Both the position numbers and the translations under genes were made by a program. From Escherichia phage 121Q, in sequence record NC_025447.1: a DNA stretch of 64,000 nucleotides; one strand, written 5' to 3'. The notes beneath the pieces are model-generated. The model saw nothing but the letters and a program-made list of their open reading frames with translations, was not told the origin of the DNA and did not search any database. The number at the start of each line of letters is the position of its first letter. Within the stretch, counting starts at the first letter, position 1. Shown in pieces: positions 9,077 to 26,806 of the stretch.

Positions 9077-9104
9077 TTGCAAAGTATTGGGAAAGGTGTA
9101 GAAT
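9077..9104 (+). promoter_or_regulatory. early-type sigma70 promoter with leader hairpin
   Basis: aAAGTACTTGCAA, 16-nt spacer, TAGAAT; hairpin ACGGGGG..CTCCCGT at ~9118-9137. Confidence 0.55.
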
Positions 9105-9160
9105 GTTTTACATCGAGACGGGGGAAACGCTCCCGTTGCACTTTAAAAGAGATTAAAACG

Positions 9161-9523
9161 ATGGCGACTCAAATCAATACTATCATGCTTAACCTGGTTT
9201 CTTTCCGTGAAGAGATGAAAGATCTTCCCGCTGAGACTGTACGGATTCACATTGCAGCTTATCGGGAATTGATTGCAATGCTGCCGCTTAAGCGTGAACA
9301 GTATGCCGCTACTGCTATGCTCGATGCAATGATCCATAAGATGATCCAGACTGATTTAACGATGGCTTATCAGTACATGGGCGAAATGTTTGCAGTGTAT
9401 AGCAAGCCAGTACCAGGAATGGAAAGTACAGAAGTATTGCACGGCTTAAACTTAAAACAAGATGCATGGGATAATATGCCTCGTTTCCTGGTATGGGCTG
9501 ACAGTGGCAAGATTTACGAATAA
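9161..9523 (+). CDS. hypothetical protein (120 aa)
   Basis: Start trimmed from 9077 to ATG 9161 (MATQINTIM), downstream of promoter and hairpin. Confidence 0.6.
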   Translation: MATQINTIMLNLVSFREEMKDLPAETVRIHIAAYRELIAMLPLKREQYAATAMLDAMIHKMIQTDLTMAYQYMGEMFAVYSKPVPGMESTEVLHGLNLKQDAWDNMPRFLVWADSGKIYE

Positions 9524-9537
9524 GTTTAATAAAGTAC

Positions 9538-9565
9538 TTGCAAACTAAGTTTAAAAGCGTATAAT
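9538..9565 (+). promoter_or_regulatory. early-type promoter with leader hairpin
   Basis: TTGCAA, 16-nt spacer, TATAAT; hairpin GTGGGGAA..TTCCCCAC 9578-9596. Confidence 0.6.
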
Positions 9566-9617
9566 GTTTTATATCAGGTGGGGAATAGTTCCCCACTATA
9601 ATAAAGAGGATTTAAAA

Positions 9618-9857
9618 ATGGCTAAATCAAAAATGTTCTTAGGACACAAAAACAAAACTCATTGGAATGTTTCCTTATGGATTAATAATGACGAATCATT
9701 ATACCGGTTGGCCCAGGACTTTATTGCCGCTAACACTAATCGTAATGATGCGGCCCGTCATATGATGCTATTTTTAGAACAGACTGGACAAGATAAAACT
9801 CCAGACGGCTTTAAGTATAGCACTACTGCGATCCGTGCGGCGATGGTTGGAATGTAA
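9618..9857 (+). CDS. hypothetical protein (79 aa)
   Basis: ATG 9618 after SD AAAGAGGA; MAKSKMF... Confidence 0.65.
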   Translation: MAKSKMFLGHKNKTHWNVSLWINNDESLYRLAQDFIAANTNRNDAARHMMLFLEQTGQDKTPDGFKYSTTAIRAAMVGM

Positions 9858-9875
9858 GAGAATAGATTAAAAGTA

Positions 9876-9903
9876 CTATTGCACGGTGATAGTACTTTAT
9901 AAT
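9876..9903 (+). promoter_or_regulatory. promoter-like element (deletion variant of the 21921 promoter)
   Basis: aaagtactattgcacggtgatagtactttataat; -35 degenerate. Confidence 0.35.
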
Positions 9904-9940
9904 AAAGTTCTTTTTGTACAACAACGATAGGGGTAACAGC

Positions 9941-10207
9941 ATGACTATTACATATTTTGCAACGCGTGAACTTGCTCGGATTGCCGCACGCCAGGACGGG
10001 GCGACGTTTAAAGATATGGGCGTACAATCTGAACGTGGTAAACGTTGGGCCGTAGTAAAGCAAAGTACAGCCCGATCAATTCAGTACTGGCGAGCGGCTT
10101 TAAAGCGTCCTGATAGTGTATCGCGTCGCGTGGTAGAAATAAAGCACGACCGCAAGGGCAATCGCGTTACCGTGTACCGTACTAAAAAGATTGCAGTACT
10201 TGAATAA
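9941..10207 (+). CDS. hypothetical protein; paralog of 21998-22393
   Basis: MTITYFATRELARIAAR...HDRKGNRVTVY shared with 21998 protein (MITKFFATREQARIVAR...HDRKGNRVTVY); start trimmed to ATG 9941. Confidence 0.65.
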   Translation: MTITYFATRELARIAARQDGATFKDMGVQSERGKRWAVVKQSTARSIQYWRAALKRPDSVSRRVVEIKHDRKGNRVTVYRTKKIAVLE

Positions 10208-10214
10208 AAAGTAC

Positions 10215-10242
10215 TTGCAAACTATGTTTAATGGCGTATAAT
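10215..10242 (+). promoter_or_regulatory. early-type promoter with leader hairpin
   Basis: TTGCAA, 16-nt spacer, TATAAT; hairpin GCGGGAA-CAC-TTCCCGC 10257-10273. Confidence 0.6.
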
Positions 10243-10294
10243 GTTTTACATCGAGAGCGGGAACACTTCCCGCCTATAACCTGGAGTAATAAAA

Positions 10295-10525
10295 ATGACT
10301 AATATGTATATGACTGAAGTTAAAACCGTAAAAGATACTACCACGAATAAAACTACTTACTTACAGCGGATCTGCGGTGTATGGCAACGTATCAGCAAAT
10401 CAAAGTACTTTAAATTAACATCATATGCCAATCGTTCGGATTCATTCAGTACTGAAATAAAAGGTAATAAAGTACACCAATACGGCACTTATTATTATTA
10501 TAGCCTGGACGCGATTGCAGTATAA
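10295..10525 (+). CDS. hypothetical protein (76 aa)
   Basis: SD CTGGAGT; ATG 10295. Confidence 0.65.
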   Translation: MTNMYMTEVKTVKDTTTNKTTYLQRICGVWQRISKSKYFKLTSYANRSDSFSTEIKGNKVHQYGTYYYYSLDAIAV

Positions 10526-10555
10526 GTAGTTTACAAATCTTTACAATTGCCAGTA

Positions 10556-10584
10556 TTGACTTATTTTGTCAGTACTGGCATAAT
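10556..10584 (+). promoter_or_regulatory. promoter (rightward) of convergent pair flanking box element
   Basis: TTGACT, 17-nt spacer containing CAGTACTGG, CATAAT. Confidence 0.5.
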
Positions 10585-10607
10585 GTATCTATTGAAACGA
10601 ACAATTT

Positions 10608-10683
10608 GGCCCACGGGGTGCGGGAGTGTATCTATAGAAAAAGTAGTTTATTACAGTTACAATTGTGCACCCGGTGGGTTAGC
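10608..10683. repeat. Inverted pair of the 'CCCACNGGGTGC' box (candidate small structured RNA)
   Basis: ggcccacggggtgcgggagtgtatctatag ... tgtgcacccggtgggttagc: ~12-bp imperfect arms around a ~45-nt loop. Confidence 0.45.
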
Positions 10684-10699
10684 TGTTGTCATGGGGTAT

Positions 10700-10728
10700 A
10701 TTATGCCAGTACTTGATAATGCTGTCAA
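10700..10728 (-). promoter_or_regulatory. promoter (leftward) of convergent pair
   Basis: Minus strand reads TTGACA, 17-nt spacer, CATAAT (plus strand attatg...tgtcaa). Confidence 0.5.
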
Positions 10729-10775
10729 TACTTTTTTTTTACTATTCAGTACTGAAAACTATTTTTAAAAAGTAC

Positions 10776-10803
10776 TTGCAAACTATGTTTAAAGGCGTAT
10801 AAT
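10776..10803 (+). promoter_or_regulatory. early-type promoter (first of tandem pair)
   Basis: TTGCAA, 16-nt spacer, TATAAT; followed by conserved ~85-nt leader also present at 20777-20862. Confidence 0.55.
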
Positions 10804-10893
10804 GTTTTACATCAGGACGGGGAATGAAATAAGTAACTCCCTGTTAAGTAGTCCAGGAGTAAGACATACGAAAACCTCCCCTGATAAAATAGT

Positions 10894-10921
10894 TTGACAA
10901 AGATTTATAAAAGCGTATAAT
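10894..10921 (+). promoter_or_regulatory. early-type promoter (second of tandem pair)
   Basis: TTGACA, 16-nt spacer, TATAAT. Confidence 0.55.
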
Positions 10922-10953
10922 ACTTACATCAACTACTGAATGAGGGTTACAAA

Positions 10954-11565
10954 ATGAAAACTATCACTACTACTACTTTCGTTATGGCTTTTTCTGAACT
11001 GAACGCAGAACAACAAACGGCGGCTATCGAACTGGTTCGGGATCGGGAACGTGCAAGTGAGGATAATTTCTTTGCTGAGTCAGTACTGGAATACTATAAA
11101 GAAACAGTACTACCAGAATACGGCATAGATGAAGCTGAATTGCAATACAGTGGTTTTTGGTCGCAAGGTGACGGTGCATCAATCAGTACTGACCACGTTG
11201 ACGCTGAGAAGTTTTTACGCAAGGTTAAGGCGTTAACGAAATATCGTTCCATCCGTCACCTGTTGAACGAAGATGATTTGGAAATGAGTGTAGAACGTTC
11301 CCAATCGCGTTATGCACACGAAAACACGGTAGGCGGTTGCGTTGATACTCGCTACACTGATTTAACTGTAAAACAGGCGGCGTTAGCTGAGGAACTGGAA
11401 AATTTACTGACTGACACGATCCGAGAATTATCTTGTAAGCTGTACCGTGATTTAGAAAATGCTTATGAAGACCAGTTTACTACTGAAAACATTGTAGGAC
11501 TGATTGAGGGTAACGAATATCAATTTAATGTTATCGATGGTGTAGTAGAATCTATCGCATATTAA
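10954..11565 (+). CDS. hypothetical acidic protein (203 aa)
   Basis: SD GAGGGT; long ORF with even codon structure; acidic composition. Confidence 0.7.
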   Translation: MKTITTTTFVMAFSELNAEQQTAAIELVRDRERASEDNFFAESVLEYYKETVLPEYGIDEAELQYSGFWSQGDGASISTDHVDAEKFLRKVKALTKYRSIRHLLNEDDLEMSVERSQSRYAHENTVGGCVDTRYTDLTVKQAALAEELENLLTDTIRELSCKLYRDLENAYEDQFTTENIVGLIEGNEYQFNVIDGVVESIAY

Positions 11566-11623
11566 TTCAGTACTGAATCACTGGCGGGGAATGGTTCCCG
11601 CCTATATCCCAGGAGTAAGAGAA

Positions 11624-11860
11624 ATGATCGAACAAATCAAAACTACAACGCCAAACGTAACGGGTACAGTATCACACTTCATTGGTGACGATTCGCGGGG
11701 CGTTCCTTATTGTGCAGTACATGTAAACAAAAATGGCGACTACTGGCTAACGGTTTACGGTTCTTATTCTTTCGGGCGTAGTGCACACCAAAAGATCCTG
11801 GATAAAGTACAACCAACGGGTAAAAATATCACCGCTGAGATGTTTTATAAAAAGCACTAA
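11624..11860 (+). CDS. hypothetical protein (78 aa)
   Basis: Start trimmed to ATG 11624 after SD CCAGGAGTAAGAG; preceded by hairpin GGCGGGGAATGGTTCCCGCC. Confidence 0.6.
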   Translation: MIEQIKTTTPNVTGTVSHFIGDDSRGVPYCAVHVNKNGDYWLTVYGSYSFGRSAHQKILDKVQPTGKNITAEMFYKKH

Positions 11861-11867
11861 AAAGTAC

Positions 11868-11895
11868 TTGCAAAGTAATTAGATTAACGTATAAT
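11868..11895 (+). promoter_or_regulatory. early-type promoter with leader hairpin
   Basis: TTGCAA, 16-nt spacer, TATAAT; hairpin 11910-11926. Confidence 0.6.
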
Positions 11896-11945
11896 ACTTT
11901 ATATCGAGAGCGGGAATAGTTCCCGCCTTTACTGAGGATTATCTA

Positions 11946-12230
11946 ATGGGTAAAGTAATTAACTATACAGTACTAAGCAAGTCATTATCTATTAGCCAGT
12001 GCACCGATGGTTTTTGGCTGTACGATGAAACGCGTGGCATGAATTTAGCTATGCAGGAGAAAACTACTGATGCGGCATATCTTAAAGCACTGGAATACTA
12101 CCAGAAGCGTTTAAAGGAAGTAGAAAACGATTATAATAACCTGAAAGCGAAAGTAGATCATTTCGTCGGTCAATTCATTGACGATGACGAGGACGGGCAC
12201 TACTGCGACCGTTGCGGATCTTACAATTGA
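11946..12230 (+). CDS. hypothetical protein (94 aa)
   Basis: SD CTGAGGAT; ATG 11946. Confidence 0.65.
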   Translation: MGKVINYTVLSKSLSISQCTDGFWLYDETRGMNLAMQEKTTDAAYLKALEYYQKRLKEVENDYNNLKAKVDHFVGQFIDDDEDGHYCDRCGSYN

Positions 12231-12247
12231 GTACTGAGGATTATCTA

Positions 12248-12451
12248 ATGAGTGATTTAATTAAACGTATCAAAGAGCTTGAAGAAAAAGAATTGCAGTT
12301 GATCGGGTTACGGAATAAAGTATTCCATGATTTAGGTGGCTTCATTAATGCCTGGGATAGTGGCGATCCTGATGCGTTACCTGCTAACCGCCAGGCGATG
12401 ATCAATGATGTGCGTGGTGTCTTTGATTATGTTTTAAAGCAATTAAATTAA
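12248..12451 (+). CDS. hypothetical protein (67 aa)
   Basis: Start trimmed to ATG 12248; duplicated SD context actgaggattatctaatg as at 11946. Confidence 0.6.
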   Translation: MSDLIKRIKELEEKELQLIGLRNKVFHDLGGFINAWDSGDPDALPANRQAMINDVRGVFDYVLKQLN

Positions 12452-12459
12452 AAAAGTAC

Positions 12460-12487
12460 TTGCAATTAGTTTTCAGTACTGTATAAT
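12460..12487 (+). promoter_or_regulatory. early-type promoter with leader hairpin
   Basis: TTGCAA, 16-nt spacer (ttagttttcagtactg), TATAAT; hairpin ~12500-12518. Confidence 0.6.
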
Positions 12488-12537
12488 AGTTTACATCAAG
12501 GGGGAAATGGTTCTCCCCACTAATAAGGAGTTTTACA

Positions 12538-12759
12538 ATGGCTAATATCACTACTCTTTCCCAGCTTGAAGCACTGGTTAAATCTATGCGGGAACATGCC
12601 GACAATATCGGCGTAGAAGATCCGGCTGTATGTTTTTGCGACGAAATAAATGATGATACGCTCGTCATTGCAGAAGTACAAGACGTTTCTAACTATTCAT
12701 CGCGTTACACTGGCGGCGTAGCAAAGAAAGGTGATTTTTGTTTATATCTTACTAAGTAA
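12538..12759 (+). CDS. hypothetical protein (73 aa)
   Basis: SD TAAGGAG; MANITTL... Confidence 0.65.
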   Translation: MANITTLSQLEALVKSMREHADNIGVEDPAVCFCDEINDDTLVIAEVQDVSNYSSRYTGGVAKKGDFCLYLTK

Positions 12760-12766
12760 TAACCAG

Positions 12767-12792
12767 GGGGATCAAACGATCCCCTTTATTTT
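12767..12792 (+). terminator. Rho-independent terminator
   Basis: GGGGATC-AAAC-GATCCCC followed by TTTATTTT. Confidence 0.6.
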
Positions 12793-12818
12793 GCAGTACT
12801 GAATCATTTAATAGACGG

Positions 12819-12850
12819 ATCTATGCACCCTGTGGGTTAGTGACTATCTC
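12819..12850 (-). repeat. 'CCCACAGGGTGCA' box element, minus orientation, downstream of minus-strand promoter
   Basis: Plus strand atctatgcaccctgtgggttagtgactatctc is the reverse complement of the box seen at 16977. Confidence 0.5.
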
Positions 12851-12864
12851 GTCTTTATGTAGGT

Positions 12865-12893
12865 ATTATGCCAGTACTGGATGCAGTTGTCAA
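12865..12893 (-). promoter_or_regulatory. minus-strand promoter driving the box element
   Basis: Minus strand TTGACA, 17-nt spacer, CATAAT; transcript would end at the 12767-12792 hairpin. Confidence 0.5.
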
Positions 12894-12927
12894 GACTTTT
12901 TTTTCAAATACTTTTATATTAAAGTAC

Positions 12928-12955
12928 TTGATAATAGTTTTTAAACGCGTATAAT
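12928..12955 (+). promoter_or_regulatory. early-type promoter
   Basis: TTGATA, 16-nt spacer, TATAAT. Confidence 0.5.
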
Positions 12956-13005
12956 GTTTTACATCTAATCGGGAATACTCCCTAGTACTAACAAAGGATA
13001 TACAA

Positions 13006-13305
13006 ATGAAAACTGCAATCATCGCCCTGGCTTTATCTGTTTCCTCTTTCGCTGTTAACGCTTCCGTTGATGTACAGAAAGAAAAATTCATTCAGTGCAC
13101 TGTTGCAATGACTAACGAGGAAACGGCTGAGATCGTTACCAAATCCCTGGAACTGGCCCCTGCAATGTTTGCTAATGGCCCGTACCATGAAGAAGATGAT
13201 CAGGGTAGCACGACCATCTATTACGATGCAAAAAGTAAACGCGGTTCTGTCACTGTAATGGATACAGAGAAAGTTACATTCACTGGCGTAATTAATTGTT
13301 TATAA
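13006..13305 (+). CDS. small secreted/periplasmic protein (99 aa)
   Basis: N-terminus MKTAIIALALSVSSFAVNA-S resembles a Sec signal peptide; SD AAAGGA. Confidence 0.6.
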   Translation: MKTAIIALALSVSSFAVNASVDVQKEKFIQCTVAMTNEETAEIVTKSLELAPAMFANGPYHEEDDQGSTTIYYDAKSKRGSVTVMDTEKVTFTGVINCL

Positions 13306-13323
13306 TATAGTACTGAATCACTA

Positions 13324-13352
13324 GCCCACTATAAGGAGTGGGCTTTTTTTAT
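13324..13352 (+). terminator. Rho-independent terminator
   Basis: AGCCCACT..AGTGGGCT followed by TTTTTTT. Confidence 0.7.
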
Positions 13353-13401
13353 TGTAGGATTGTAGTACTGGTATACTTTGAAAATAGTTTTAAAAAAGTA
13401 G

Positions 13402-13429
13402 TTGACATTACCAGGGAAAAGCGTAGAAT
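13402..13429 (+). promoter_or_regulatory. early-type promoter
   Basis: TTGACA, 16-nt spacer, TAGAAT. Confidence 0.55.
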
Positions 13430-13543
13430 GTATTACATCAAGACGGGGAACATTAAGTAGACCGCCAGTAAGTCGAATGAAAAACTGGACACGTCAAACA
13501 AACTTTGATAAACTAACTTAAACTTTAATTGAGGATTTATAAA

Positions 13544-14026
13544 ATGGCTAATGTAAAATCATTTCTGAAAGCACTGATTTCTAACGATACTGTCATTGCT
13601 GCTGAATTGCTGGCTGACCTGGATAATGATACCATGAAAGCAGTACGCAACAATTTTAACATTGCTTACAGTGAAGCGAAAGAACTACAAGCCAAAAAGG
13701 TAGCAGAACTGGAAGAACAGAAAAAAGCCCGTGAAGCAGAACTGCAAGCAACAATAGAAAGTATTCAGGCGGCGGTGTCTGGTTTAGATCTGGAAGTGGT
13801 TATTGAAATGGCACATAAAGCCCTGGCGGTTAAGTACGGTGAAGATAAGCCGGAATCTAAGCCTAAAAAATGGATTCAAGAACGTGTTACGGTTGTCCTT
13901 GATAACGGGGAAGAACATTTGATTCCTGTACGCGGTAACTGCATTGCGGTAGTACTGGATGCTATCAAAGAAAGCGGTATGACTCGCGAGGAATGGATCG
14001 AATCTCACCGCAAAATTGAAGCATAA
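13544..14026 (+). CDS. hypothetical protein (160 aa), coiled-coil-rich
   Basis: Start trimmed to ATG 13544 (MANVKSF) after SD GAGGAT. Confidence 0.65.
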   Translation: MANVKSFLKALISNDTVIAAELLADLDNDTMKAVRNNFNIAYSEAKELQAKKVAELEEQKKAREAELQATIESIQAAVSGLDLEVVIEMAHKALAVKYGEDKPESKPKKWIQERVTVVLDNGEEHLIPVRGNCIAVVLDAIKESGMTREEWIESHRKIEA

Positions 14027-14047
14027 CATTTAAAGTACTGAATCACT

Positions 14048-14074
14048 AGCCCACTTATACAGTGGGCTTTTTTG
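14048..14074 (+). terminator. Rho-independent terminator
   Basis: AGCCCACT-TATAC-AGTGGGCT followed by TTTTTTG. Confidence 0.7.
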
Positions 14075-14154
14075 TGTCTATAGTATTCCATGCCGTCAGC
14101 ACCTCATAGAATCGATTCTAACGCATTAAACTGATTATCTGATGCATCGCCCTA

Positions 14155-14162
14155 GCTGGTGG
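14155..14162 (+). other. Chi octamer GCTGGTGG
   Basis: Exact match, intergenic, next to repeated cgttagaatgcgattgag element. Confidence 0.6.
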
Positions 14163-14227
14163 AGTTAAGGCCGTTAGAATGCGATTGAGAGCGTTTAAAG
14201 TATTTTGCAAAAAGTAATAAAAAGTAC

Positions 14228-14255
14228 TTGCACGATTCAGAGATTAGCGTATAAT
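14228..14255 (+). promoter_or_regulatory. early-type promoter
   Basis: TTGCAC, 16-nt spacer, TATAAT. Confidence 0.55.
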
Positions 14256-14300
14256 GTTTTACATCAAGGCGAAACACCTTAACTAACTGAGGATATAAAG

Positions 14301-14453
14301 ATGAATACTTATGAACTGGATTGTTTCACGTTACAAGTAATGTCAGTATGCAGCAAGAAAGATTGGTCATCAAAGGAATTTAAAGCAGTTATTGCGTGTG
14401 CAAAACACGGCAAGACTATCAATGAAACGGCATCAATCATTGATAAACTTTAA
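14301..14453 (+). CDS. hypothetical small protein (50 aa; below ORF-track cutoff)
   Basis: SD CTGAGGAT then ATG 14301; MNTYELDCFTLQVMSV... Confidence 0.5.
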   Translation: MNTYELDCFTLQVMSVCSKKDWSSKEFKAVIACAKHGKTINETASIIDKL

Positions 14454-14461
14454 AAAATAGT

Positions 14462-14489
14462 TTGACAATAGTTTTAAGTACTGTATAAT
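14462..14489 (+). promoter_or_regulatory. early-type promoter
   Basis: TTGACA, 16-nt spacer (atagttttaagtactg), TATAAT. Confidence 0.6.
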
Positions 14490-14522
14490 ATTTTACATCA
14501 ACTACTGAGAAGGATTTAAAAA

Positions 14523-14750
14523 ATGGCTATCATCATCACTTACGTATCTGGCACTACTGGCACTTCTAGCACTGTTGCAGTACTGACCAACAAGAAAGGT
14601 GCGGAACTTCATTCTGCAATGAATACCTGGGCGGTGAATGAGTTCGGTCAGTGGGCTAGTGTAGAATACATTGAAACCTATCAAGTGCCGTCTATTAGCT
14701 TAACTGATTTAGGTGTAGATCGTATCCTTTGCCTGGATGAATTAAACTAA
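14523..14750 (+). CDS. hypothetical protein (75 aa)
   Basis: SD GAGAAGGA; MAIIITYVSG... Confidence 0.65.
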   Translation: MAIIITYVSGTTGTSSTVAVLTNKKGAELHSAMNTWAVNEFGQWASVEYIETYQVPSISLTDLGVDRILCLDELN

Positions 14751-14766
14751 AAAGTACTTGCAAAGT

Positions 14767-14794: not shown

Positions 14795-14835
14795 CAAGGG
14801 GAGAAATGATTCTCCCCACTAAGAGGAAACTAAAA

Positions 14836-21122: not shown

Positions 21123-21131
21123 TAAAATAGT

Positions 21132-21159
21132 TTGACAATAGTTTTTAGTACTGTATAAT
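21132..21159 (+). promoter_or_regulatory. early-type promoter with leader hairpin
   Basis: TTGACA, 16-nt spacer, TATAAT; hairpin GTGGGGAATAGTTCCCCAC 21173-21190. Confidence 0.65.
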
Positions 21160-21211
21160 ATTTTACATCAAGTGGGGAATAGTTCCCCACCTAACAAAGA
21201 GAGAAATTAAA

Positions 21212-21487
21212 ATGCGGATTCTACTGACAGCTAACGAAATCGAGCAAGTACTGACTACTAACCTGGAAGACTGGAAACGTGATGCAGATATCCAGGCGGT
21301 GCAATGGCTCAATGATAAGTTAACGCCGGATGATTTAAGTAAGATTGTAGATCCACAATTCTATGAAGATATTCACGACACGGCTTTAAGCGTCGAGGAT
21401 GTACTTGATAAGCACTACATTGATATTGATTTGCAGGTTTACGGTCGTAAAAACTTTATCACTATTCACGACATTTATAATAATTAA
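21212..21487 (+). CDS. hypothetical protein (91 aa)
   Basis: SD AAAGAGAGAAA; ATG 21212. Confidence 0.65.
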   Translation: MRILLTANEIEQVLTTNLEDWKRDADIQAVQWLNDKLTPDDLSKIVDPQFYEDIHDTALSVEDVLDKHYIDIDLQVYGRKNFITIHDIYNN

Positions 21488-21489
21488 GT

Positions 21490-21517
21490 ATTGACAAAGT
21501 ATCTTAGTACTGTATAA
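21490..21517 (+). promoter_or_regulatory. early-type promoter with leader hairpin
   Basis: TTGACA, 16-nt spacer, TATAAT; hairpin AGGGGAATGGTTCCCCT 21534-21550. Confidence 0.65.
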
Positions 21518-21574
21518 TAGTTTACATCAAGGCAGGGGAATGGTTCCCCTCCTAACTAAAAGAGAGAAATTAAA

Positions 21575-21898
21575 ATGACTATGATCCTTACCCAGAAAGT
21601 AGAAATGAAAATTGTAACTTCCTTTGACATTAAAGTCAATCGGTGGACTGATAGCCACGGCAATACTTACCACTCATGCTACGTGTCTGCATTGATTGGT
21701 GACCGCTGGGAAGACCTGGGACATGAAACCTTTACTTACGGTTACGGTACACAAGGCGAATACACGGGCTTGGAGATCATTAAAGAAACTGTAATAGGTT
21801 TCAACCCGAAAGAGAAAGTACTACACAGAATTGAGGATGAGATCAACAAAGAAATTACAGTTCGTTACTACGATGTAAAACGTAAGAAAGATATGTAA
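21575..21898 (+). CDS. hypothetical protein; paralog of 15365-15688
   Basis: Shared core NRWTDSHGNTYHSCYVS...FTYGY...VKRKKD. Confidence 0.7.
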   Translation: MTMILTQKVEMKIVTSFDIKVNRWTDSHGNTYHSCYVSALIGDRWEDLGHETFTYGYGTQGEYTGLEIIKETVIGFNPKEKVLHRIEDEINKEITVRYYDVKRKKDM

Positions 21899-21920
21899 TA
21901 GAATCCATTTAAAGTACTAT

Positions 21921-21949
21921 TTGACATTGCCCAGATAGTACTTTATAAT
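21921..21949 (+). promoter_or_regulatory. early-type promoter
   Basis: TTGACA, 17-nt spacer, TATAAT. Confidence 0.55.
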
Positions 21950-21997
21950 AGACTCTAACTTGTAGTACTAATTAACTTAACTAATAGGATGTACACC

Positions 21998-22393
21998 ATG
22001 ATTACTAAATTCTTCGCTACCCGTGAACAAGCTCGCATCGTTGCCCGTGAAGAAGGTGAAACATTTAAAGACATGGGCAAAGATGCACCGAAAGGACAAC
22101 GCTGGGCGGTACAGTTCAAAGAGATCTCTGATATTGTGAATTCACCTGAGCCTGTACTTACAGCAGCAGAACTAAAGCAAGCTCAAGAACTGGCTGAAGT
22201 ACTGAACGCTCAAGATGACTTTTTGAAAGGTTCTGATATTGAAGTTACAGTTAACGCAAATGCATGGACTCACGCGGATCACCTGGCAAACCTTAAGCGT
22301 CCAAGTGAACTGATTCGTAACCAGAAAGAGATCCGTCATGACCGTAAAGGAAACCGTGTAACAGTATACAGTAAACGCCGCCAGGTTATCTAA
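21998..22393 (+). CDS. hypothetical protein; paralog of 9941-10207
   Basis: Start set to second ATG (21998), which has SD AGGA 9 nt upstream; N- and C-terminal similarity to the 9941 protein. Confidence 0.65.
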   Translation: MITKFFATREQARIVAREEGETFKDMGKDAPKGQRWAVQFKEISDIVNSPEPVLTAAELKQAQELAEVLNAQDDFLKGSDIEVTVNANAWTHADHLANLKRPSELIRNQKEIRHDRKGNRVTVYSKRRQVI

Positions 22394-22416
22394 TAACTTT
22401 GCAGTACTAACAACAC

Positions 22417-22442
22417 GGCGGGAATATTTCCCGCCTTTTTTA
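22417..22442 (+). terminator. Rho-independent terminator
   Basis: GGCGGGAA-TAT-TTCCCGCC followed by TTTTTTAT. Confidence 0.7.
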
Positions 22443-22455
22443 TAGGATAAACAAA

Positions 22456-22710
22456 ATGATTAAGGTTCAACTATCAAACGATAATGTATTACGGGTACAC
22501 TATAAAGCTCCACAGAGAATCATCACAAAGGCCGTACAGCTTGCTAATGAGTTTATTAATGGTAGTCTATTGCCTAGGAAGTTAAGCAACGGGAAACTAC
22601 GTGTAATCGACGTAGACACTAACAATAGAATAGTGATCGAGAGTACTGGAAAAATTAATCTATATGAACACCAACAATACAATAAAAAAATAAAACTAAT
22701 ATCACGTTGA
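22456..22710 (+). CDS. hypothetical protein (84 aa)
   Basis: SD TAGGAT; ATG 22456. Confidence 0.6.
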   Translation: MIKVQLSNDNVLRVHYKAPQRIITKAVQLANEFINGSLLPRKLSNGKLRVIDVDTNNRIVIESTGKINLYEHQQYNKKIKLISR

Positions 22711-22735
22711 CAGTACTCAAATGTTTTAGTATTAT
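22707..22735 (+). promoter_or_regulatory. promoter (duplicated module, copy 1)
   Basis: TTGACA, 17-nt spacer (gtactcaaatgttttag), TATTAT; near-identical module at 22983. Confidence 0.55.
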
Positions 22736-22763
22736 GTATCTATACCAACACAGGAGAAACAAA

Positions 22764-22982
22764 ATGAAATTATCTAAAATCGAAAAGAAAACTATTGATG
22801 AAGCAGTGAAGCACGGTTATACCTTTCGTAATGATTCACACTTCACCAGTTTTCAACAGGGAAACCGTACCATCAAAAAACTCATTGATAAAGGTTTACT
22901 CACTAAGGTTGATAACGGGAACGGTGTAGAATATCAACCGACAGAAGACGCATTATCACTAAAGAAATATTCTATTATCTAA
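22764..22982 (+). CDS. hypothetical protein (72 aa)
   Basis: Start trimmed from 22707 (in the promoter) to ATG 22764 after SD CAGGAGAAACAAA. Confidence 0.6.
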   Translation: MKLSKIEKKTIDEAVKHGYTFRNDSHFTSFQQGNRTIKKLIDKGLLTKVDNGNGVEYQPTEDALSLKKYSII

Positions 22983-23011
22983 TTGACAGTACTCAAATGT
23001 TTTAGTACTAT
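22983..23011 (+). promoter_or_regulatory. promoter (duplicated module, copy 2)
   Basis: TTGACA, 17-nt spacer, TACTAT. Confidence 0.55.
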
Positions 23012-23039
23012 GTACGCATACCAACACGGGGAAAACAAA

Positions 23040-23282
23040 ATGATTACTTTAGAAAAACGTATCAAAGAGACTACAACGCTGGTGGAACTGTTAACCGTTC
23101 TTAAATGCCGGGTAACTCCATTCAGTACACCGGACTTTATCAACATGGTGGACGTTAACGGTCGCTATCGTATTGCGGTCGAACAAGGTACGGCAAAAGT
23201 ATTCAGTACTAAAAATACGCGTGAAGTATTCCACGCAGTTCAAGTAAAAAAAGTAGTTGCCATTGATAGTAAAGTACTGTAA
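23040..23282 (+). CDS. hypothetical protein (80 aa)
   Basis: Start trimmed to ATG 23040 after SD CGGGGAAAACAAA; shares promoter/leader but not protein sequence with 22764. Confidence 0.6.
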   Translation: MITLEKRIKETTTLVELLTVLKCRVTPFSTPDFINMVDVNGRYRIAVEQGTAKVFSTKNTREVFHAVQVKKVVAIDSKVL

Positions 23283-23313
23283 TATAGTTTCATTAACTCA
23301 AGGAGTCAACACA

Positions 23314-23898
23314 ATGCGTAACTATACTAAATTCATCCGTTCACTTCATGCAATGGAAACCAACAAAGAGATCCTTTCAGCTTGTCGGTTAGCTGGACTG
23401 GAGATCGTCGGTGCGGGTTCTTCCCGTATTGTATTCGCTTTAAATGATCGGTTAGTGATTAAGGTCGCGAATTGTGATGCGGGTGTAGAACAAAATGAAA
23501 CTGAATGTAAGGTATGGAATTTTTTAGATTATGACCGTCCGCACCTTAAACAGTTCTTTGCCAAGGTGCATATGCATTTATGCGATCCTGATAATCTGCT
23601 TATTGTTATGGATCGTTTGAGTACTGCAAGCAAAGGCAGTGTAAAGCACGTAACCGCATGTAATGAGTTAAAGTACAATATTAAACGTAACACTATTGAA
23701 CGCCATCACCATTTCGCTGATGCTCTCAATCACGTTGATGATACATTATCCACACTAACGATAAGAGATATCAGAAAACAGAATATCGGCCAGGATCGCA
23801 ACGGCTTGATTAAAGTACTTGATTACGGTTTAACCCGCAATATCTGGAATCAGTACTATAAAAAACGTGATGTTAACGCGATAACTATAACACGATAA
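23314..23898 (+). CDS. putative protein-kinase-like protein (194 aa)
   Basis: Motif order resembles a kinase core: Gly-rich loop GAGSSRIVF, lysine in LVIKVAN, catalytic-loop-like RDIRKQNIG, DFG-like DYG; start trimmed to ATG 23314 after SD CAAGGAGT. Confidence 0.4.
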   Translation: MRNYTKFIRSLHAMETNKEILSACRLAGLEIVGAGSSRIVFALNDRLVIKVANCDAGVEQNETECKVWNFLDYDRPHLKQFFAKVHMHLCDPDNLLIVMDRLSTASKGSVKHVTACNELKYNIKRNTIERHHHFADALNHVDDTLSTLTIRDIRKQNIGQDRNGLIKVLDYGLTRNIWNQYYKKRDVNAITITR

Positions 23899-23916
23899 AA
23901 AAGATTAAAAAAGGGA

Positions 23917-23945
23917 TTGACTCCAGTCAGTCCCTTTGCTATTAT
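23917..23945 (+). promoter_or_regulatory. promoter with embedded inverted repeat, driving box element
   Basis: TTGACT, 17-nt spacer, TATTAT. Confidence 0.5.
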
Positions 23946-23968
23946 ATATTCATTGAGAGATAACTCAC

Positions 23969-24000
23969 TGACCCATAGGGTGCGGAAGTGTATCTATTAT
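23969..24000 (+). repeat. 'CCCATAGGGTGCG' box element
   Basis: tgacccatagggtgcggaagtgtatctattat. Confidence 0.55.
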
Positions 24001-24039
24001 ATAAGTATTCAGTACTGAAAACTATTTTATAAAAAGTAC

Positions 24040-24067
24040 TTGCAAACTATCTCAATGAGCGTATAAT
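24040..24067 (+). promoter_or_regulatory. early-type promoter with leader hairpin
   Basis: TTGCAA, 16-nt spacer, TATAAT; hairpin ~24078-24098; the 23917-24067 cassette is near-identical to 16925-17085. Confidence 0.6.
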
Positions 24068-24122
24068 GTTTTATATCGAGAGGGGGAAATGGTTCTCCCT
24101 GGTACTAAAAGGAATCAAGACG

Positions 24123-24344
24123 ATGGCTACTATGACCTGCGTTCACGCTTCAAATCTTCTGAATGATGCAGCATTTAAAGCAGGTGAAGAATATCAATGC
24201 TATCGGGATGAAAATAAAAAAGTTTTCGTCGTTGATGCTAACGGTTTCCATATTGAATTGCAATCCGGTTTCACTGGCATTGATGGTAAATCTGTATGGG
24301 GCGTCCAGGACGATAACGGCACATATCATTTTAAACGTAATTAA
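24123..24344 (+). CDS. hypothetical protein (73 aa)
   Basis: Start trimmed to ATG 24123 after SD AAAAGGAAT. Confidence 0.6.
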   Translation: MATMTCVHASNLLNDAAFKAGEEYQCYRDENKKVFVVDANGFHIELQSGFTGIDGKSVWGVQDDNGTYHFKRN

Positions 24345-24345
24345 G

Positions 24346-24373
24346 TATTGACAAAGTATATCAGTACTGTATA
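24346..24373 (+). promoter_or_regulatory. early-type promoter with leader hairpin
   Basis: TTGACA, 16-nt spacer, TATAAT; hairpin 24387-24405. Confidence 0.65.
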
Positions 24374-24428
24374 ATAGTTTACATCAAGGGGAGAATAGTT
24401 CTCCCCACCAATAAAAGGAAACAAAATT

Positions 24429-24701
24429 ATGTCCAGCTACTCCGCTACTATGATTATTAAAGATATGAACGGTAATCCTACTTCTGCTGGTGGATCATTT
24501 GGTAACATTAATTTAGATGGGCGGTTATCAATTGAATCAGCCATCAATGCAGCGAAAGAAGTTTTTAAGAATGAATGTACTGTAAGCAAGCTGGATTATA
24601 TGGGCTTCGCTATCGAGAAAACTAATCGTTTTGTGGACTACAAAAAACCACTGATGATTGATACTAACCTGAAAGCAAACGAAGTGGAATACTTATTATG
24701 A
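24429..24701 (+). CDS. hypothetical protein (90 aa)
   Basis: SD AAAAGGAAA; ATG 24429. Confidence 0.65.
   Translation: MSSYSATMIIKDMNGNPTSAGGSFGNINLDGRLSIESAINAAKEVFKNECTVSKLDYMGFAIEKTNRFVDYKKPLMIDTNLKANEVEYLL
24485..24492 (+). other. Chi octamer GCTGGTGG (inside CDS)
   Basis: Exact match, codes SAGG. Confidence 0.55.
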
Positions 24702-24889
24702 CAGTAGAAGAAGTTAAAAAAGTACTGGCAGTACTACGCTATCATAATCATTGTAAGGTGAAGAATGATCCTGATTATCTTGATTCATCGCTGGAAGAGG
24801 ATACACTACAAGCAATAAGCCATATGCAAAAAATGCTTAAGCGTATGACCGAAAAGAACAGGCCGGACTATATCGGAAATAAAATTTAA
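24698..24889 (+). CDS. hypothetical protein (63 aa)
   Basis: ATGA coupling to upstream gene. Confidence 0.55.
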   Translation: MTVEEVKKVLAVLRYHNHCKVKNDPDYLDSSLEEDTLQAISHMQKMLKRMTEKNRPDYIGNKI

Positions 24890-24895
24890 AAAGTA

Positions 24896-24923
24896 CTTGC
24901 ATTGTAAGTAAAACAAAGTATAA
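24896..24923 (+). promoter_or_regulatory. early-type promoter with leader hairpin
   Basis: TTGCAT, 16-nt spacer, TATAAT; hairpin GGGGGAGATATCCTCCCCC 24934-24952. Confidence 0.6.
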
Positions 24924-24972
24924 TGTTTTACATAGGGGGAGATATCCTCCCCCACTAATAAGGAGTACTAAA

Positions 24973-25197
24973 ATGGCTAACTTTGATGAACTGATGCGGG
25001 AAGTAGCTACCCTGGCAGAAGAGAAGAAATCATTTGATTCTATCTATAACACCGCTTACAGTGATTCAGTACTGGCATGTACTCAGGATCAAAAAGATGA
25101 ACTGATCGCCACCTATCATGAAGCATGGAAGTATTACCGCCAATGGGAGAAAGAAGAAAGCGAGTCTACCATCAACGGCATCAATAATCTAATCTAA
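24973..25197 (+). CDS. hypothetical protein (74 aa)
   Basis: SD TAAGGAGT; MANFDELMREV. Confidence 0.65.
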   Translation: MANFDELMREVATLAEEKKSFDSIYNTAYSDSVLACTQDQKDELIATYHEAWKYYRQWEKEESESTINGINNLI

Positions 25198-25215
25198 AGT
25201 TTTATTTCAGTACTA

Positions 25216-25244
25216 TTGACAATGCGTGATAGTACTGATGTGAT
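25216..25244 (+). promoter_or_regulatory. promoter-like element (weak -10)
   Basis: TTGACA, ~17-nt spacer, TGTGAT. Confidence 0.35.
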
Positions 25245-25271
25245 AACTTTACTAACTAAAGGGGAAACATA

Positions 25272-25529
25272 ATGGAACAGTTCACACAATATCGGGTAAA
25301 TCCTCAAGCTATGGCCTACGTAGAAGACCATAAAACGTTACCAGTACTAACACCAATTAAAGGCCATATCTATCGTGCTATGCAGTGGAATAACGCCTAT
25401 AATGGCTATAAAGCGGTATCCGCTGCAATGTACTTAGGGGATGGCGAATGGTTTGATCCAAATAATCCTGGTGCACTCGATAGTACTGAAAAAATGACAT
25501 GGGCCGACTATATCGAAGATATCTCATAA
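25272..25529 (+). CDS. hypothetical protein (85 aa)
   Basis: SD AAAGGGGAAA; ATG 25272. Confidence 0.6.
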   Translation: MEQFTQYRVNPQAMAYVEDHKTLPVLTPIKGHIYRAMQWNNAYNGYKAVSAAMYLGDGEWFDPNNPGALDSTEKMTWADYIEDIS

Positions 25530-25536
25530 AAACTAT

Positions 25537-25564
25537 TTGACAGTACTACAAGATAATGTATAAT
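25537..25564 (+). promoter_or_regulatory. early-type promoter with leader hairpin
   Basis: TTGACA, 16-nt spacer, TATAAT; hairpin GCGGGGGAATAGTTCTCCCGC 25577-25597. Confidence 0.6.
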
Positions 25565-25617
25565 GTTTTACATAGAGCGGGGGAATAGTTCTCCCGCACC
25601 TTTAGGAGTAAAACATT

Positions 25618-25818
25618 ATGTCAATCGCTAACGAATTGGTTGCAGTACTGAATGAAGCAAAAGCCAACTGCATCGATGTACAGATCAAAGAGCTTGGCAA
25701 TGGCTTGATCGGCTGTACTTGTACAGTGCAAACGGCTACCGATTATCGGGAAGTGGAATCACTCGAATCACTGGTACGGTATATTAAAATCCTGGTAGAA
25801 GATTGGAGAATCATCTAA
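25618..25818 (+). CDS. hypothetical protein (66 aa)
   Basis: SD TTAGGAGT; ATG 25618. Confidence 0.65.
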   Translation: MSIANELVAVLNEAKANCIDVQIKELGNGLIGCTCTVQTATDYREVESLESLVRYIKILVEDWRII

Positions 25819-25840
25819 CAAAAAAGAATAAAAAAAGGGA

Positions 25841-25869
25841 TTGACTCCGGTCAGTCCCTTTGCTATTAT
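25841..25869 (+). promoter_or_regulatory. promoter with embedded inverted repeat, driving box element
   Basis: TTGACT, 17-nt spacer, TATTAT. Confidence 0.5.
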
Positions 25870-25887
25870 ATACGCATAGACAAAAAC

Positions 25888-25918
25888 TAGCCCACTGGGT
25901 GCAGAGAAGTATCTGTAA
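25888..25918 (+). repeat. 'CCCACTGGGTGCA' box element
   Basis: tagcccactgggtgcagagaagtatctgtaag. Confidence 0.5.
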
Positions 25919-25946
25919 GATAGTTAATAACGGTGAGTAACTATCT

Positions 25947-25954
25947 GCTGGTGG
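25947..25954 (+). other. Chi octamer GCTGGTGG
   Basis: Exact match, intergenic. Confidence 0.6.
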
Positions 25955-25991
25955 ATGTAATTCCAGTACTCAAAACTATTTCAAAAAAGTA

Positions 25992-26020
25992 TTGACAAAG
26001 TATAGCAGTACTGAGATAAT
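25992..26020 (+). promoter_or_regulatory. promoter-like element
   Basis: TTGACA, 16-nt spacer (aagtatagcagtactg), AGATAA/GATAAT. Confidence 0.45.
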
Positions 26021-26074
26021 GTATCTCGTAGGGCGGCAATAGTGCAGCCCACCTCCAAAAGAGCGAGATATAAA

Positions 26075-26290
26075 ATGGCGTTAACCAAACAAGAAATTAT
26101 CGACCGTATCAAAGAGTCAACTGGCTGGTATGTTGGGGACCGTTTAATTGTTAAAGTTCTCGATTATTCAAATAATCCTCTTGCACCGGAACCAGTGGCA
26201 TACAAATTATCCTGGATATCTGCGTTTAGCGGTAAGCGTGAAAGATGTGTGTACTATCCGAACACCGTCGGGCTACAGTTCTGTAAATAA
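26075..26290 (+). CDS. hypothetical protein (71 aa)
   Basis: Start trimmed to ATG 26075 after SD AAAAGAGCGAGA. Confidence 0.6.
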   Translation: MALTKQEIIDRIKESTGWYVGDRLIVKVLDYSNNPLAPEPVAYKLSWISAFSGKRERCVYYPNTVGLQFCK

Positions 26291-26308
26291 ATTTTAATAG
26301 AAAAAGTA

Positions 26309-26337
26309 TTGACAAAGTATATCAGTACTGCAATAAT
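26309..26337 (+). promoter_or_regulatory. promoter-like element
   Basis: TTGACA, 16-nt spacer, CAATAA; same architecture as 25992. Confidence 0.45.
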
Positions 26338-26390
26338 GTATCTCGTAGGGCGGCAATGGTGCGACGGCCCACAAAGTTAGGAGATTCAAA

Positions 26391-26717
26391 ATGAGTACTT
26401 CAATCGCTATCGTTAAAGCTTTCATCCGTACCAATTTCGACCGCATTACTGTTGATGGTAATGATCGGGAAGTAGAATACTCTTTCATTGTTGCACAAAC
26501 CGCAAACGGTGCACGCTATATCTTAAATGACAGTGAAGCTAACCACTACTTCTATAATAAAGGATTACACTACATCCCTAGCGAAGTAGTCTACACTAAG
26601 ATGAATAAGCTGGTAGACAAGATTAACGCTAAAGGTACTATCGATTTACAGTACTGGAGCGAAACCGAACCAGAATACGGATCACATCGTTACCTGAATC
26701 CAGGAATTAAAATGTAA
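26391..26717 (+). CDS. hypothetical protein (108 aa)
   Basis: SD TTAGGAGAT; ATG 26391. Confidence 0.65.
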   Translation: MSTSIAIVKAFIRTNFDRITVDGNDREVEYSFIVAQTANGARYILNDSEANHYFYNKGLHYIPSEVVYTKMNKLVDKINAKGTIDLQYWSETEPEYGSHRYLNPGIKM

Positions 26718-26724
26718 AAAGTAC

Positions 26725-26752
26725 TTGCATTGTACTTAGAATCAAGTATAAT
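26725..26752 (+). promoter_or_regulatory. early-type promoter with leader hairpin
   Basis: TTGCAT, 16-nt spacer, TATAAT; hairpin 26766-26786. Confidence 0.6.
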
Positions 26753-26806
26753 GTTTTACATAGAGAGGGGGAAATGGTTCTCCCTCCTAAATTAAGGAGT
26801 TTTATC

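Follow-up and report, generated by a model that had tools for sequence, protein, structure and literature searches.

Promoter–hairpin cassettes in the terminal repeat of the jumbo coliphage 121Q: a probable early-gene array with signs of shuffling and a candidate RNA element in its leaders

Here, we analyze a 64-kb stretch of the genome of Escherichia phage 121Q ("the window", in whose positions all coordinates are given), on the + strand of which, between 9,077 and 26,806, small genes are lined up behind recurring modules made of a promoter, frequently a leader hairpin, and a Shine-Dalgarno (SD) sequence. We propose that early ('host-takeover') genes are arrayed here within the ~21-kb direct terminal repeat (DTR) of a jumbo coliphage of the genus Asteriusvirus, that the leader hairpin acts as RNA, and that the modules serve as recombination homology; as a whole, we give this explanation a probability of about 55%. 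The feature itself is real and statistically overwhelming. It is an expression and recombination cassette resembling the promoter-early stem-loop (PeSL) elements of T4-type phages, and not a new category.

How strong is the promoter signal? In a strict sigma-70 test (−35 with at most one mismatch to TTGACA or TTGCAA; spacer of 16–17 nt; −10 with at most one mismatch to TATAAT, A2 and T6 being kept; at most one mismatch over both hexamers together), the + strand of 9000–27000 yielded 35 matches, compared to 0.81±0.80 (max 3) in dinucleotide shuffles. The − strand of the same interval held three, and the + strand of the 37 kb downstream of the array seven. Twelve perfect TTGACA-N16/17-TATAAT sites (12/12), every one on the + strand, emerged from a separate promoter scan. 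The sequence signals originally described—the −35 variants TTGCAA and TTGACA, an AGTACTG spacer, and the start region GTTTTACATC—are all present in the modules, and −35 type and hairpin type are found in all four combinations. The hexamer AGTACT, a ScaI site, is also the commonest one in the window, with 265 copies per 64 kb against 21.5 expected from base composition, in coding and noncoding DNA alike; it is part of promoter spacers (cAGTACTg-TATAAT) and of the tract 5′ of the −35 (AAAGTACTTGCAA), and recurs at the apex of leader hairpins in a Klebsiella phage. Sigma-70-dependent pausing at a −10-like TACATC was judged by eye and dropped, the critical final T being missing.

Our curated inventory holds 51 genes on the + strand between 9.1 and 27.5 kb (Table 1), 37 of them with a promoter of their own. 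Seventeen are preceded by promoter, canonical hairpin and SD, another eight by a promoter with an imperfect or atypical hairpin (in two cases a conserved structured leader of ~85 nt, then a second promoter), and 12 by a promoter with an unstructured leader; six have a hairpin without a promoter, and seven, translationally coupled or abutting, have neither. The original prediction of more than 30 genes behind almost the same module is therefore accurate for the promoter, but not for the full combination with hairpin and SD. The cargo is mostly unrelated, as had been claimed: there are two paralogous pairs among the 51 proteins, and the 50 proteins scanned matched 48 PHROG families, only two of which were matched by two proteins. 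Pfam matches were obtained for few proteins (a DksA/TraR zinc finger, a GNAT acetyltransferase, a ParE-like domain, a kinase). One paralogous pair, 15365/21575, does sit behind different variants. The modules at 22707 and 22983, previously called identical, are ~88% similar and have no hairpin. About a quarter of the cassette genes (13/51) start with Met-Ala, mostly as ATGGCT and often as ATGGCTA (for instance at 12538, 13544, 14523, 15061, 15365, 17573, 17877, and 24973), which could reflect either selection for a favorable second codon or module homology extending into the open reading frame.

The hairpin is as conspicuous as the promoter. Defined strictly (at least 6 bp, at least four G-C pairs, start 7–22 nt past the −10), it occurs in 17 of 42 leaders, compared to 0.24 (max 2) in shuffled leaders, and in 0.2% of random 60-nt windows within 28–64 kb. 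The variants previously listed, GGGGAGAA-loop-TTCTCCCC, GCGGGAA and GTGGGGAA, all exist in the sequence. Hairpin leaders are predicted to fold into an autonomous stem-loop of −12 to −16 kcal/mol that leaves SD and AUG unpaired, and leaders at hairpin-less promoters are predicted to fold at 0 kcal/mol. Across 135 promoter-plus-hairpin modules from nine loci (eight related ones besides the window), the hairpin starts 12.5±1.6 nt past the −10 (range 9–20), ends 20.3±2.9 nt 5′ of the ATG, and is 19.6±1.8 nt long (17–28 nt in all). E. coli RNA polymerase initiates 6–9 nt past the −10, favoring a purine after a pyrimidine; since the hairpin's offset exceeds this distance, it should be transcribed. 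With a start taken to lie 7–8 nt past the −10, the predicted single-stranded 5′ tail is mostly 5–6 nt (range 3–8).

Its structure is conserved without its sequence. The modules compared comprise 83 distinct hairpins with 62 distinct stems, and in Klebsiella phage Muenster and Erwinia phage Hallingskeid the same position is occupied by unrelated stems (GGAGATTCCA, GGGATAC, GGGAATGAA, GGGGCAA, GGGAAGAG). The two arms pair at 94%, compared to 67±1.6% (max 71.5%, 1000 trials) when 3′ arms are permuted among hairpins, a percentage that is partly circular because the hairpins were chosen for pairing; it is positional enrichment and retention across genera that provide non-circular support for selected pairing. 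All four Watson-Crick pair types occur at each of the six loop-proximal pairs. Internal mismatches comprise 14 G.T and five A.C or C.A in the sense orientation, the pattern expected if the sense strand pairs as RNA. Loops vary freely on one and the same stem—GGGGAGAA is found with seven different loops, and there are at least ten in all—and within Asteriusvirus an apical GAA/UUC and a basal G-run are common. Together, this favors a stem selected for its pairing rather than its sequence, and likewise favors an RNA structure in the 5′ leader. For these comparisons we used a loop-anchored Python analysis, because the stems were misaligned and no more than five pairs recovered when 18 modules were aligned with MAFFT and passed to RNAalifold.

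A larger structured leader of ~85 nt lies between tandem promoters at 10804–10893 and 20776–20863. It is closed by the stem AUCAGG/CCUGAU, contains a hairpin ACGGGG/CCCCGU as well as a GGAG paired with CUCC, and is also present in the phages A73 and muut, members of unrelated families; it could function as either a regulatory leader or a small RNA. An association of U/C with A/G in this leader was rejected as independent evidence of covariation, for it merely separates the two paralogous copies.

Are the leader hairpins terminators? In the terminator scan, none of the 17 canonical hairpins was followed by a T-tract, so that the G/C hairpin directly followed by a U-tract that marks an intrinsic terminator is not seen here. 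What the scan did flag was 22417, 12765, 13323 and 14048, along with the composite elements at 16918, 20612, 23910 and 25834. Canonical terminators are separate elements, closing groups of two to six cassettes. By informal inspection, strong hairpins seemed to be missing after true terminators, but the trend was weak, several such promoters having imperfect hairpins, and we dropped it. No tRNAs were found. An invariant box, CCCAnnGGGTGC, occurs in ten copies (0.59 expected), on the − strand at 8546, 8762, 10667 and 12825 and on the + strand at 10610, 16980, 18664, 20669, 23972 and 25891. Each copy lies ~27 nt 3′ of a sigma-70 promoter of its own, with no open reading frame after it, and two form a convergent pair at 10556–10740. 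In two other jumbo phages, Muenster of Klebsiella and Hallingskeid of Erwinia, the box comes after the composite terminator/promoters as well; it may represent a short RNA gene or a site to which a protein binds.

With respect to genome context, a megablast of 9,000–20,000 matched only Asteriusvirus jumbo coliphages (ELP-22, fEgEco12, slurp01, phAPEC6, G17, and others), at 86–90% identity and in patches: coverage was 40–77% in 7–16 pieces, with none of the records reaching 80%. Base 1 of the fEgEco12 and ELP-22 records aligns to position 7458. The fEgEco12 DTR measures 20,993 bp by PhageTerm and restriction mapping (PMC13070987), and this length together with the alignment offset gives the boundaries listed in Table 1. 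The array lies inside this repeat, of which it would be essentially the whole content. Klebsiella phage Muenster (Alcyoneusvirus) has an annotated terminal repeat at 1–20030 (20,030 bp) with the same layout. Many small early genes with strong host-type promoters inside a DTR are the make-up of a terminal-repeat host-takeover (pre-early) module, and the array shows this make-up.

The ~1.6 kb from the putative left physical end to the first cassette (7458–9076) contain no convincing gene, but − strand promoters, box units and a module-type hairpin at 8406–8424. Within them, ~0.8 kb inside that end, six noncoding GAYGGCT repeats on the + strand (8234–8360; spacing 16/24/16/24/40 bp) look iteron-like and might serve as an origin or as a signal for packaging or injection; the motif has 15 copies in the whole window against 5.4 expected. 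Just past the terminal repeat, at 27700–28500, the layout shifts to a run of genes of ~65–85 amino acids in which the stop codon of one overlaps the start codon of the next and promoters are nearly absent. The related loci L002 and L003 have its counterpart at ~21.1–24.6 kb, and one junction there is a unit insertion or deletion (indel).

The comparative data support cassette shuffling. Colinear BLAST chains of the array against five relatives gave 25 distinct junctions inside the array, 14 of them with both ends in modules. Nine of the 25 are whole module-plus-gene units present in one genome and absent from the other, flanked by module repeats, and at these unit indels the alignments overlap by 43–103 bp on the single-copy side, which would be the footprint of an exchange between two module copies in register. 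Modules receive 35 of the 50 junction ends and make up 30% of the sequence (P~5e-9), yet the case for shuffling rests on the in-register, repeat-flanked indels and on module swaps, not on this P value. The swaps appear to be the stronger evidence compared to the junctions: orthologous genes, 90–99% identical, sit behind different promoter and hairpin variants. In phage A4, the ortholog of the gene at 17573 (99.3% identical) is placed behind the hairpin GGGAAGTAccagTACTTCCC, with homology resuming directly past it; relatives show three different hairpins in front of the gene at 10295; and the gene at 21212, which follows a hairpin module in 121Q, has a promoter without a hairpin in five relatives. 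Where the window has the leader hairpin of 17532–17550, ph0011 contains a 29-bp insertion (matching position 17533), and the orthologous module reads ...cttccctataGGGAGAAtagTTCTCCC.

Exchange seems not to stop at the genus boundary. In A73 (Vequintavirinae) and muut (Justusliebigvirus, Stephanstirmvirinae), modules match those of the window at ~80–97% identity, and at least seven window cassettes, sharing 73–94% nucleotide identity, recur in one or both of these phages with their order changed. When IMG/VR was scanned for the exact pattern of the commonest module, a single Asteriusvirus contig was returned and no extra diversity. The modular shuffling originally proposed thus finds backing in unit indels between module repeats, in swapped modules at orthologs, and in permuted cassettes in unrelated families.

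What might the modules do? According to our favored explanation, nearly every small gene would be a self-contained cassette, composed of an A/T-rich tract, a near-consensus host sigma-70 promoter, a short leader, an SD and an initiation codon. About half of the leaders would open with a G/C-rich hairpin of 7–9 bp, 3–8 nt past the predicted transcription start, which folds on its own and leaves the ribosome-binding site (RBS) unpaired. The features of this hairpin suggest neither a terminator nor a site bound by a protein in a sequence-specific manner. Rather, it could act as RNA and lend every monocistronic early mRNA a generic structure at its 5′ end that would cap or insulate this end, might slow decay and would keep the RBS context constant; on read-through transcripts from the upstream cassette it could double as a 3′-end barrier. 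The modules (~80–100 bp) would offer homology for recombination because they are near-identical repeats in one orientation, and recombination between them could delete, duplicate, insert and re-pair cassettes, among members of the genus as well as in exchange with unrelated virulent coliphages in which this module is in use.

Several points weigh against this explanation. The literature search found no Asteriusvirus transcriptome, and a term search of the fEgEco12 and Sharanji genome papers gave no mention of promoters or hairpins. The predicted 5′ tail, mostly 5–6 nt, is longer than the distance of classic 5′-terminal stabilizers, which lie within ~2–4 nt of the 5′ end, and RNase E, as it scans from the 5′ end, easily gets past a simple stem-loop (PMC9943677). 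A specific stabilizer mechanism, among the functions originally put forward and weakened by this predicted tail, accordingly has roughly one chance in three in our estimate. Twelve equally strong promoters have no hairpin, and six module-type hairpins lack a promoter but keep the same distance from the ATG, so the hairpin may be tied to the RBS or an intercistronic position instead of the 5′ end. Few independent events underlie the excess of G.T mismatches, and single-stranded DNA hairpins, too, tolerate G.T pairs. Finally, breakpoints are not enriched over a gene-junction null because ~75% of gene junctions carry a module, and BLAST extends alignments through any conserved module.

Which other functions could the hairpin have? 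It could act on RNA coming in from the cassette upstream, either by attenuating or weakly terminating transcription or by forming a barrier to 3′-exonucleases that fixes and stabilizes the upstream mRNA 3′ end; functionally, this would be the PeSL stem-loop moved a few bases downstream. We regard this as unlikely. PeSL stem-loops, which have the same make-up of a G-run followed by a C-run, lowered read-through in a lacZ assay as a strong terminator does (PMC2839356), promoterless module-type hairpins lie at gene ends (11583, 16052 and 27233, with 22417 and its T6 being a textbook terminator), and the annotators of phage G17 placed an ARNOLD terminator at the position orthologous to the 11868 module, directly 5′ of the gene start. 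The missing U-tract in all 17 canonical hairpins and the separate canonical terminators every two to six cassettes argue otherwise; moreover, a terminator past the start would hit the cassette's own transcripts and could not stop occlusion of a promoter that precedes it. Alternatively, a trans-acting factor that sets the timing of early expression might recognize the hairpin in RNA, be it a RegB-like phage endoribonuclease or a translational repressor, or the hairpin might be a nut/put-like element modifying RNA polymerase. Its promoter-proximal place at a fixed distance to start site and RBS, the apical GAA/UUC and basal G-run common in Asteriusvirus, the GGAG in the commonest stem, and the confinement of hairpins to the early array would suit such a role. 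We nevertheless judge it improbable, as loops are not conserved, stems differ wholly between genera and no candidate binding protein was identified. GGAG, originally highlighted as a possible regulatory target, is no conserved feature of the stems: it is absent from GCGGGAA, GTGGGGAA and the Klebsiella-phage stems, among others, and base-paired where it does occur. Nut/put-like antitermination finds no support. The region has no boxA, Rfam returned nothing relevant at gathering or permissive thresholds, and an antiterminator would find no series of terminators to overcome; a nut site was hence rejected.

Two further explanations do without RNA function. A palindrome acting as DNA might be the operator of a dimeric repressor or a roadblock past the start, or else a cruciform or single-strand hairpin that stalls replication and thereby promotes template switching and recombination. 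Its center at about +20 is typical for roadblock operators, one PeSL mini-circle crossover was mapped to the stem-loop's loop (PMC2839356), several module swaps are bounded at the 3′ edge of the hairpin, as for gene 17573 in phage A4, and the ph0011 insertion falls on a hairpin position. Still, we consider this option quite remote: hairpin length (17–28 nt) and stem sequence vary within one genome, on which grounds we rejected a fixed-geometry DNA operator, mismatches are biased to G.T in the sense strand, and homology of the whole module suffices to explain recombination. The most dubious option of all is that the hairpin lacks a function of its own and is a passenger in a repeat family homogenized by gene conversion. 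While the strong similarity of modules within a genome and the twelve strong promoters without a hairpin would fit, a hairpin, unrelated in sequence, is kept at this position in different genera, orthologous genes still have one after module replacement, and stems vary by compensated changes.

Table 1. Predicted cassette modules, hairpins, terminators and terminal repeat (window coordinates)
Positions	Strand	Feature	Details
7458–27643	.	putative direct terminal repeat (DTR)	encloses entire promoter array; fEgEco12 position 20993 corresponds to ~27643 by alignment offset
9077–9160	+	promoter+hairpin+SD	TTGCAA-16-TAGAAT; hairpin 9117–9137 GACGGGGGaaacgCTCCCGTT
9538–9617	+	promoter+hairpin+SD	hairpin 9577–9597 GGTGGGGAAtagTTCCCCACT, −14.2 kcal/mol
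10215–10294	+	promoter+hairpin+SD	hairpin 10257–10273 GCGGGAAcacTTCCCGC
11868–11945	+	promoter+hairpin+SD	hairpin 11910–11926 GCGGGAAtagTTCCCGC
12460–12537	+	promoter+hairpin+SD	hairpin 12500–12517 GGGGGAAatggTTCTCCC, one G.U pair
14758–14835	+	promoter+hairpin+SD	hairpin 14798–14817 GGGGAGAAatgaTTCTCCCC
16462–16538	+	promoter+hairpin+SD	hairpin 16502–16520 GGGGGGAAtggTTCTCCCC, G.U
17492–17572	+	promoter+hairpin+SD	hairpin 17532–17550 GGGGAGAAtagTTCTCCCC
19613–19688	+	promoter+hairpin+SD	hairpin 19653–19671
19886–19962	+	promoter+hairpin+SD	hairpin 19926–19945
21132–21211	+	promoter+hairpin+SD	hairpin 21172–21190 GTGGGGAAtagTTCCCCAC
21491–21574	+	promoter+hairpin+SD	hairpin 21534–21550 AGGGGAAtggTTCCCCT
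24040–24122	+	promoter+hairpin+SD	hairpin 24081–24100, G.U
24348–24428	+	promoter+hairpin+SD	hairpin 24388–24406
24897–24972	+	promoter+hairpin+SD	hairpin 24935–24953 GGGGGAGatatcCTCCCCC; only 10 nt from −10 to hairpin start
25537–25617	+	promoter+hairpin+SD	hairpin 25577–25597, G.U
26725–26806	+	promoter+hairpin+SD	hairpin 26765–26786, G.U
17058–17138	+	promoter, imperfect leader hairpin	hairpin 17099–17117 AGGGGAAAcggTTTCCTCT; stem perfect in orthologs
12928–13005	+	promoter, weak leader hairpin	hairpin 12970–12983
14228–14300	+	promoter, weak leader hairpin	hairpin 14266–14280
25992–26074	+	promoter, different imperfect leader hairpin	TTGACA-17-GATAAT; hairpin 26031–26050
26309–26390	+	promoter, different imperfect leader hairpin	TTGACA-17-AATAAT; hairpin 26348–26370
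10776–10953	+	tandem unit: promoter, ~85-nt structured leader, second promoter	hairpin 10817–10844 at usual offset; second promoter (10894) hairpin-less
20748–20921	+	tandem unit, second copy	structured leader; hairpin 20789–20814; second promoter 20864
13402–13543	+	promoter with 114-nt leader	leader 5′ end related to structured leader of tandem units
14462–14522	+	promoter-only	33-nt leader, unstructured, 0 kcal/mol
14999–15060	+	promoter-only, extended −10	TTGACA-17-CATAAT class; leader unstructured
15293–15364	+	promoter-only	near-duplicate of 14999; pair 14999/15293 flanks unit indel
17805–17876	+	promoter-only	CATAAT class
18084–18155	+	promoter-only	
19196–19252	+	promoter-only	before GNAT acetyltransferase gene
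21921–21997	+	promoter-only	
22707–22763	+	promoter-only	TTGACA-17-TATTAT; pair 22707/22983 flanks unit indel
22983–23039	+	promoter-only	~88% identical to 22707, unrelated gene downstream
23257–23313	+	weaker promoter-like site	TTGCCA-17-TAATAT; before kinase-like gene
11583–11602	+	module-type hairpin without promoter	21 nt 5′ of ATG at 11624
22417–22435	+	module-type hairpin without promoter	GGCGGGAAtatTTCCCGCC; T6 tract, true intrinsic terminator; 20 nt 5′ of ATG at 22456
16052–16071	+	intercistronic hairpin without promoter	18 nt 5′ of an ATG
27233–27252	+	intercistronic hairpin without promoter	24 nt 5′ of an ATG
12765–12786	+	canonical intrinsic terminator	closes cassette group
13323–13344	+	canonical intrinsic terminator	
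14048–14068	+	canonical intrinsic terminator	
16918–16953	+	PeSL-like composite terminator/promoter	terminator hairpin overlaps −35 of TTGACT-17-TATTAT promoter
20612–20647	+	PeSL-like composite terminator/promoter	AAAGGGATTGACtccgGTCAGTCCCTTT-gc-TATTAT
23910–23945	+	PeSL-like composite terminator/promoter	
25834–25869	+	PeSL-like composite terminator/promoter	

A tentative extension, which we hold to be possible rather than probable, is that the promoter-hairpin-SD module works as a shared 'adapter' of Asteriusvirus and other Rak2-like jumbo phages, Vequintavirinae and Stephanstirmvirinae, through which early host-takeover genes move between families by homologous recombination in co-infection. 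If true, these phages would draw on an integrase-free, integron-like pool of cassettes that carry their own expression signals, and the leader hairpin would be kept because it makes expression context-independent wherever a cassette lands. The findings as such take the PeSL idea of regulatory repeats doubling as recombination sites beyond T4-type phages, to jumbo-phage terminal repeats and exchange between families. This would help to account for the recruitment and turnover of hundreds of tiny orphan early genes. The leader hairpin, fixed in place and free in sequence, offers a clean and testable structural element in the 5′ untranslated region (UTR) of early transcripts made by the host polymerase, and the modules represent ready-made, strong and compact expression parts for E. 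coli. As the first DNA to enter the cell, the array should also narrow the search for host-takeover and anti-defense genes.

How do the 121Q cassettes compare to known systems? Stem-loops that stabilize mRNA from the 5′ terminus are familiar from the E. coli ompA 5′ UTR and the leaders of T7 gene 10, which opens with a GGGAGA...UUUCCC stem, and T4 gene 32. They share with the 121Q leaders a stable hairpin near the 5′ end and an unstructured RBS ~20 nt downstream, but their hairpins lie 0–4 nt from the 5′ end, compared to the predicted tail of 3–8 nt in 121Q (for the T4 gene 32 leader, see PMC8948821). The nut sites of lambda (boxA and boxB) and the put sites of HK022 are likewise promoter-proximal RNA hairpins in early transcripts; in contrast, 121Q has no boxA, conserved loop, two-stem put fold or Rfam match, and its hairpin is present at more than 17 promoters instead of once per operon. 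As for terminal repeats, the pre-early genes of T5 are located in one. A host-takeover module lying within its terminal redundancy was described for SPO1 (1998 work, via PMC6873191). Both systems resemble the 121Q array in having a terminal repeat full of small early genes that are expressed first and have strong host-type promoters and ribosome-binding sites, and differ from it in host and lineage; to our knowledge, neither has a conserved leader hairpin or shuffling via cassette repeats. In the Rak2-like phage CBB, RpoD-like promoters with UP elements were reported for the early region and terminal repeat, with no hairpin described (PMC5259590), and our literature search found no account of a leader hairpin or of cassette exchange in Rak2-like phages.

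The closest known system is the PeSL of T4-type phages. In the RB49/phi1, T4/PST and KVP40/nt-1 phages, this repeat of promoter, stem-loop and SD mediates modular shuffling of ORFans (PMC2839356, PMC4122927), and all five PeSL subclasses have their stem-loop, which is taken to be a terminator, 5′ of the transcription start (PMC2839356). The comparison, already drawn in the original prediction, is apt for the cassette but less so for its anatomy. In 121Q as in PeSLs, a conserved intergenic composite of ~100 bp combines an A/T-rich tract, a consensus sigma-70 early promoter and a stable stem-loop of a G-run and a C-run, and ends in SD and ATG; it is repeated before small, unrelated ORFans clustered in hyperplastic regions, bounds indels and forms chimeric motifs. 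What differs is that the main 121Q hairpin sits at a fixed offset within the transcribed leader and has no U-tract, that 121Q is an Asteriusvirus jumbo phage and not T4-type, that its array fills a DTR, and that its cassettes are shared with Vequintavirinae and Stephanstirmvirinae. Only the four composites at 16918, 20612, 23910 and 25834 have a stem-loop upstream of the start, overlapping the −35 exactly as in PeSLs.

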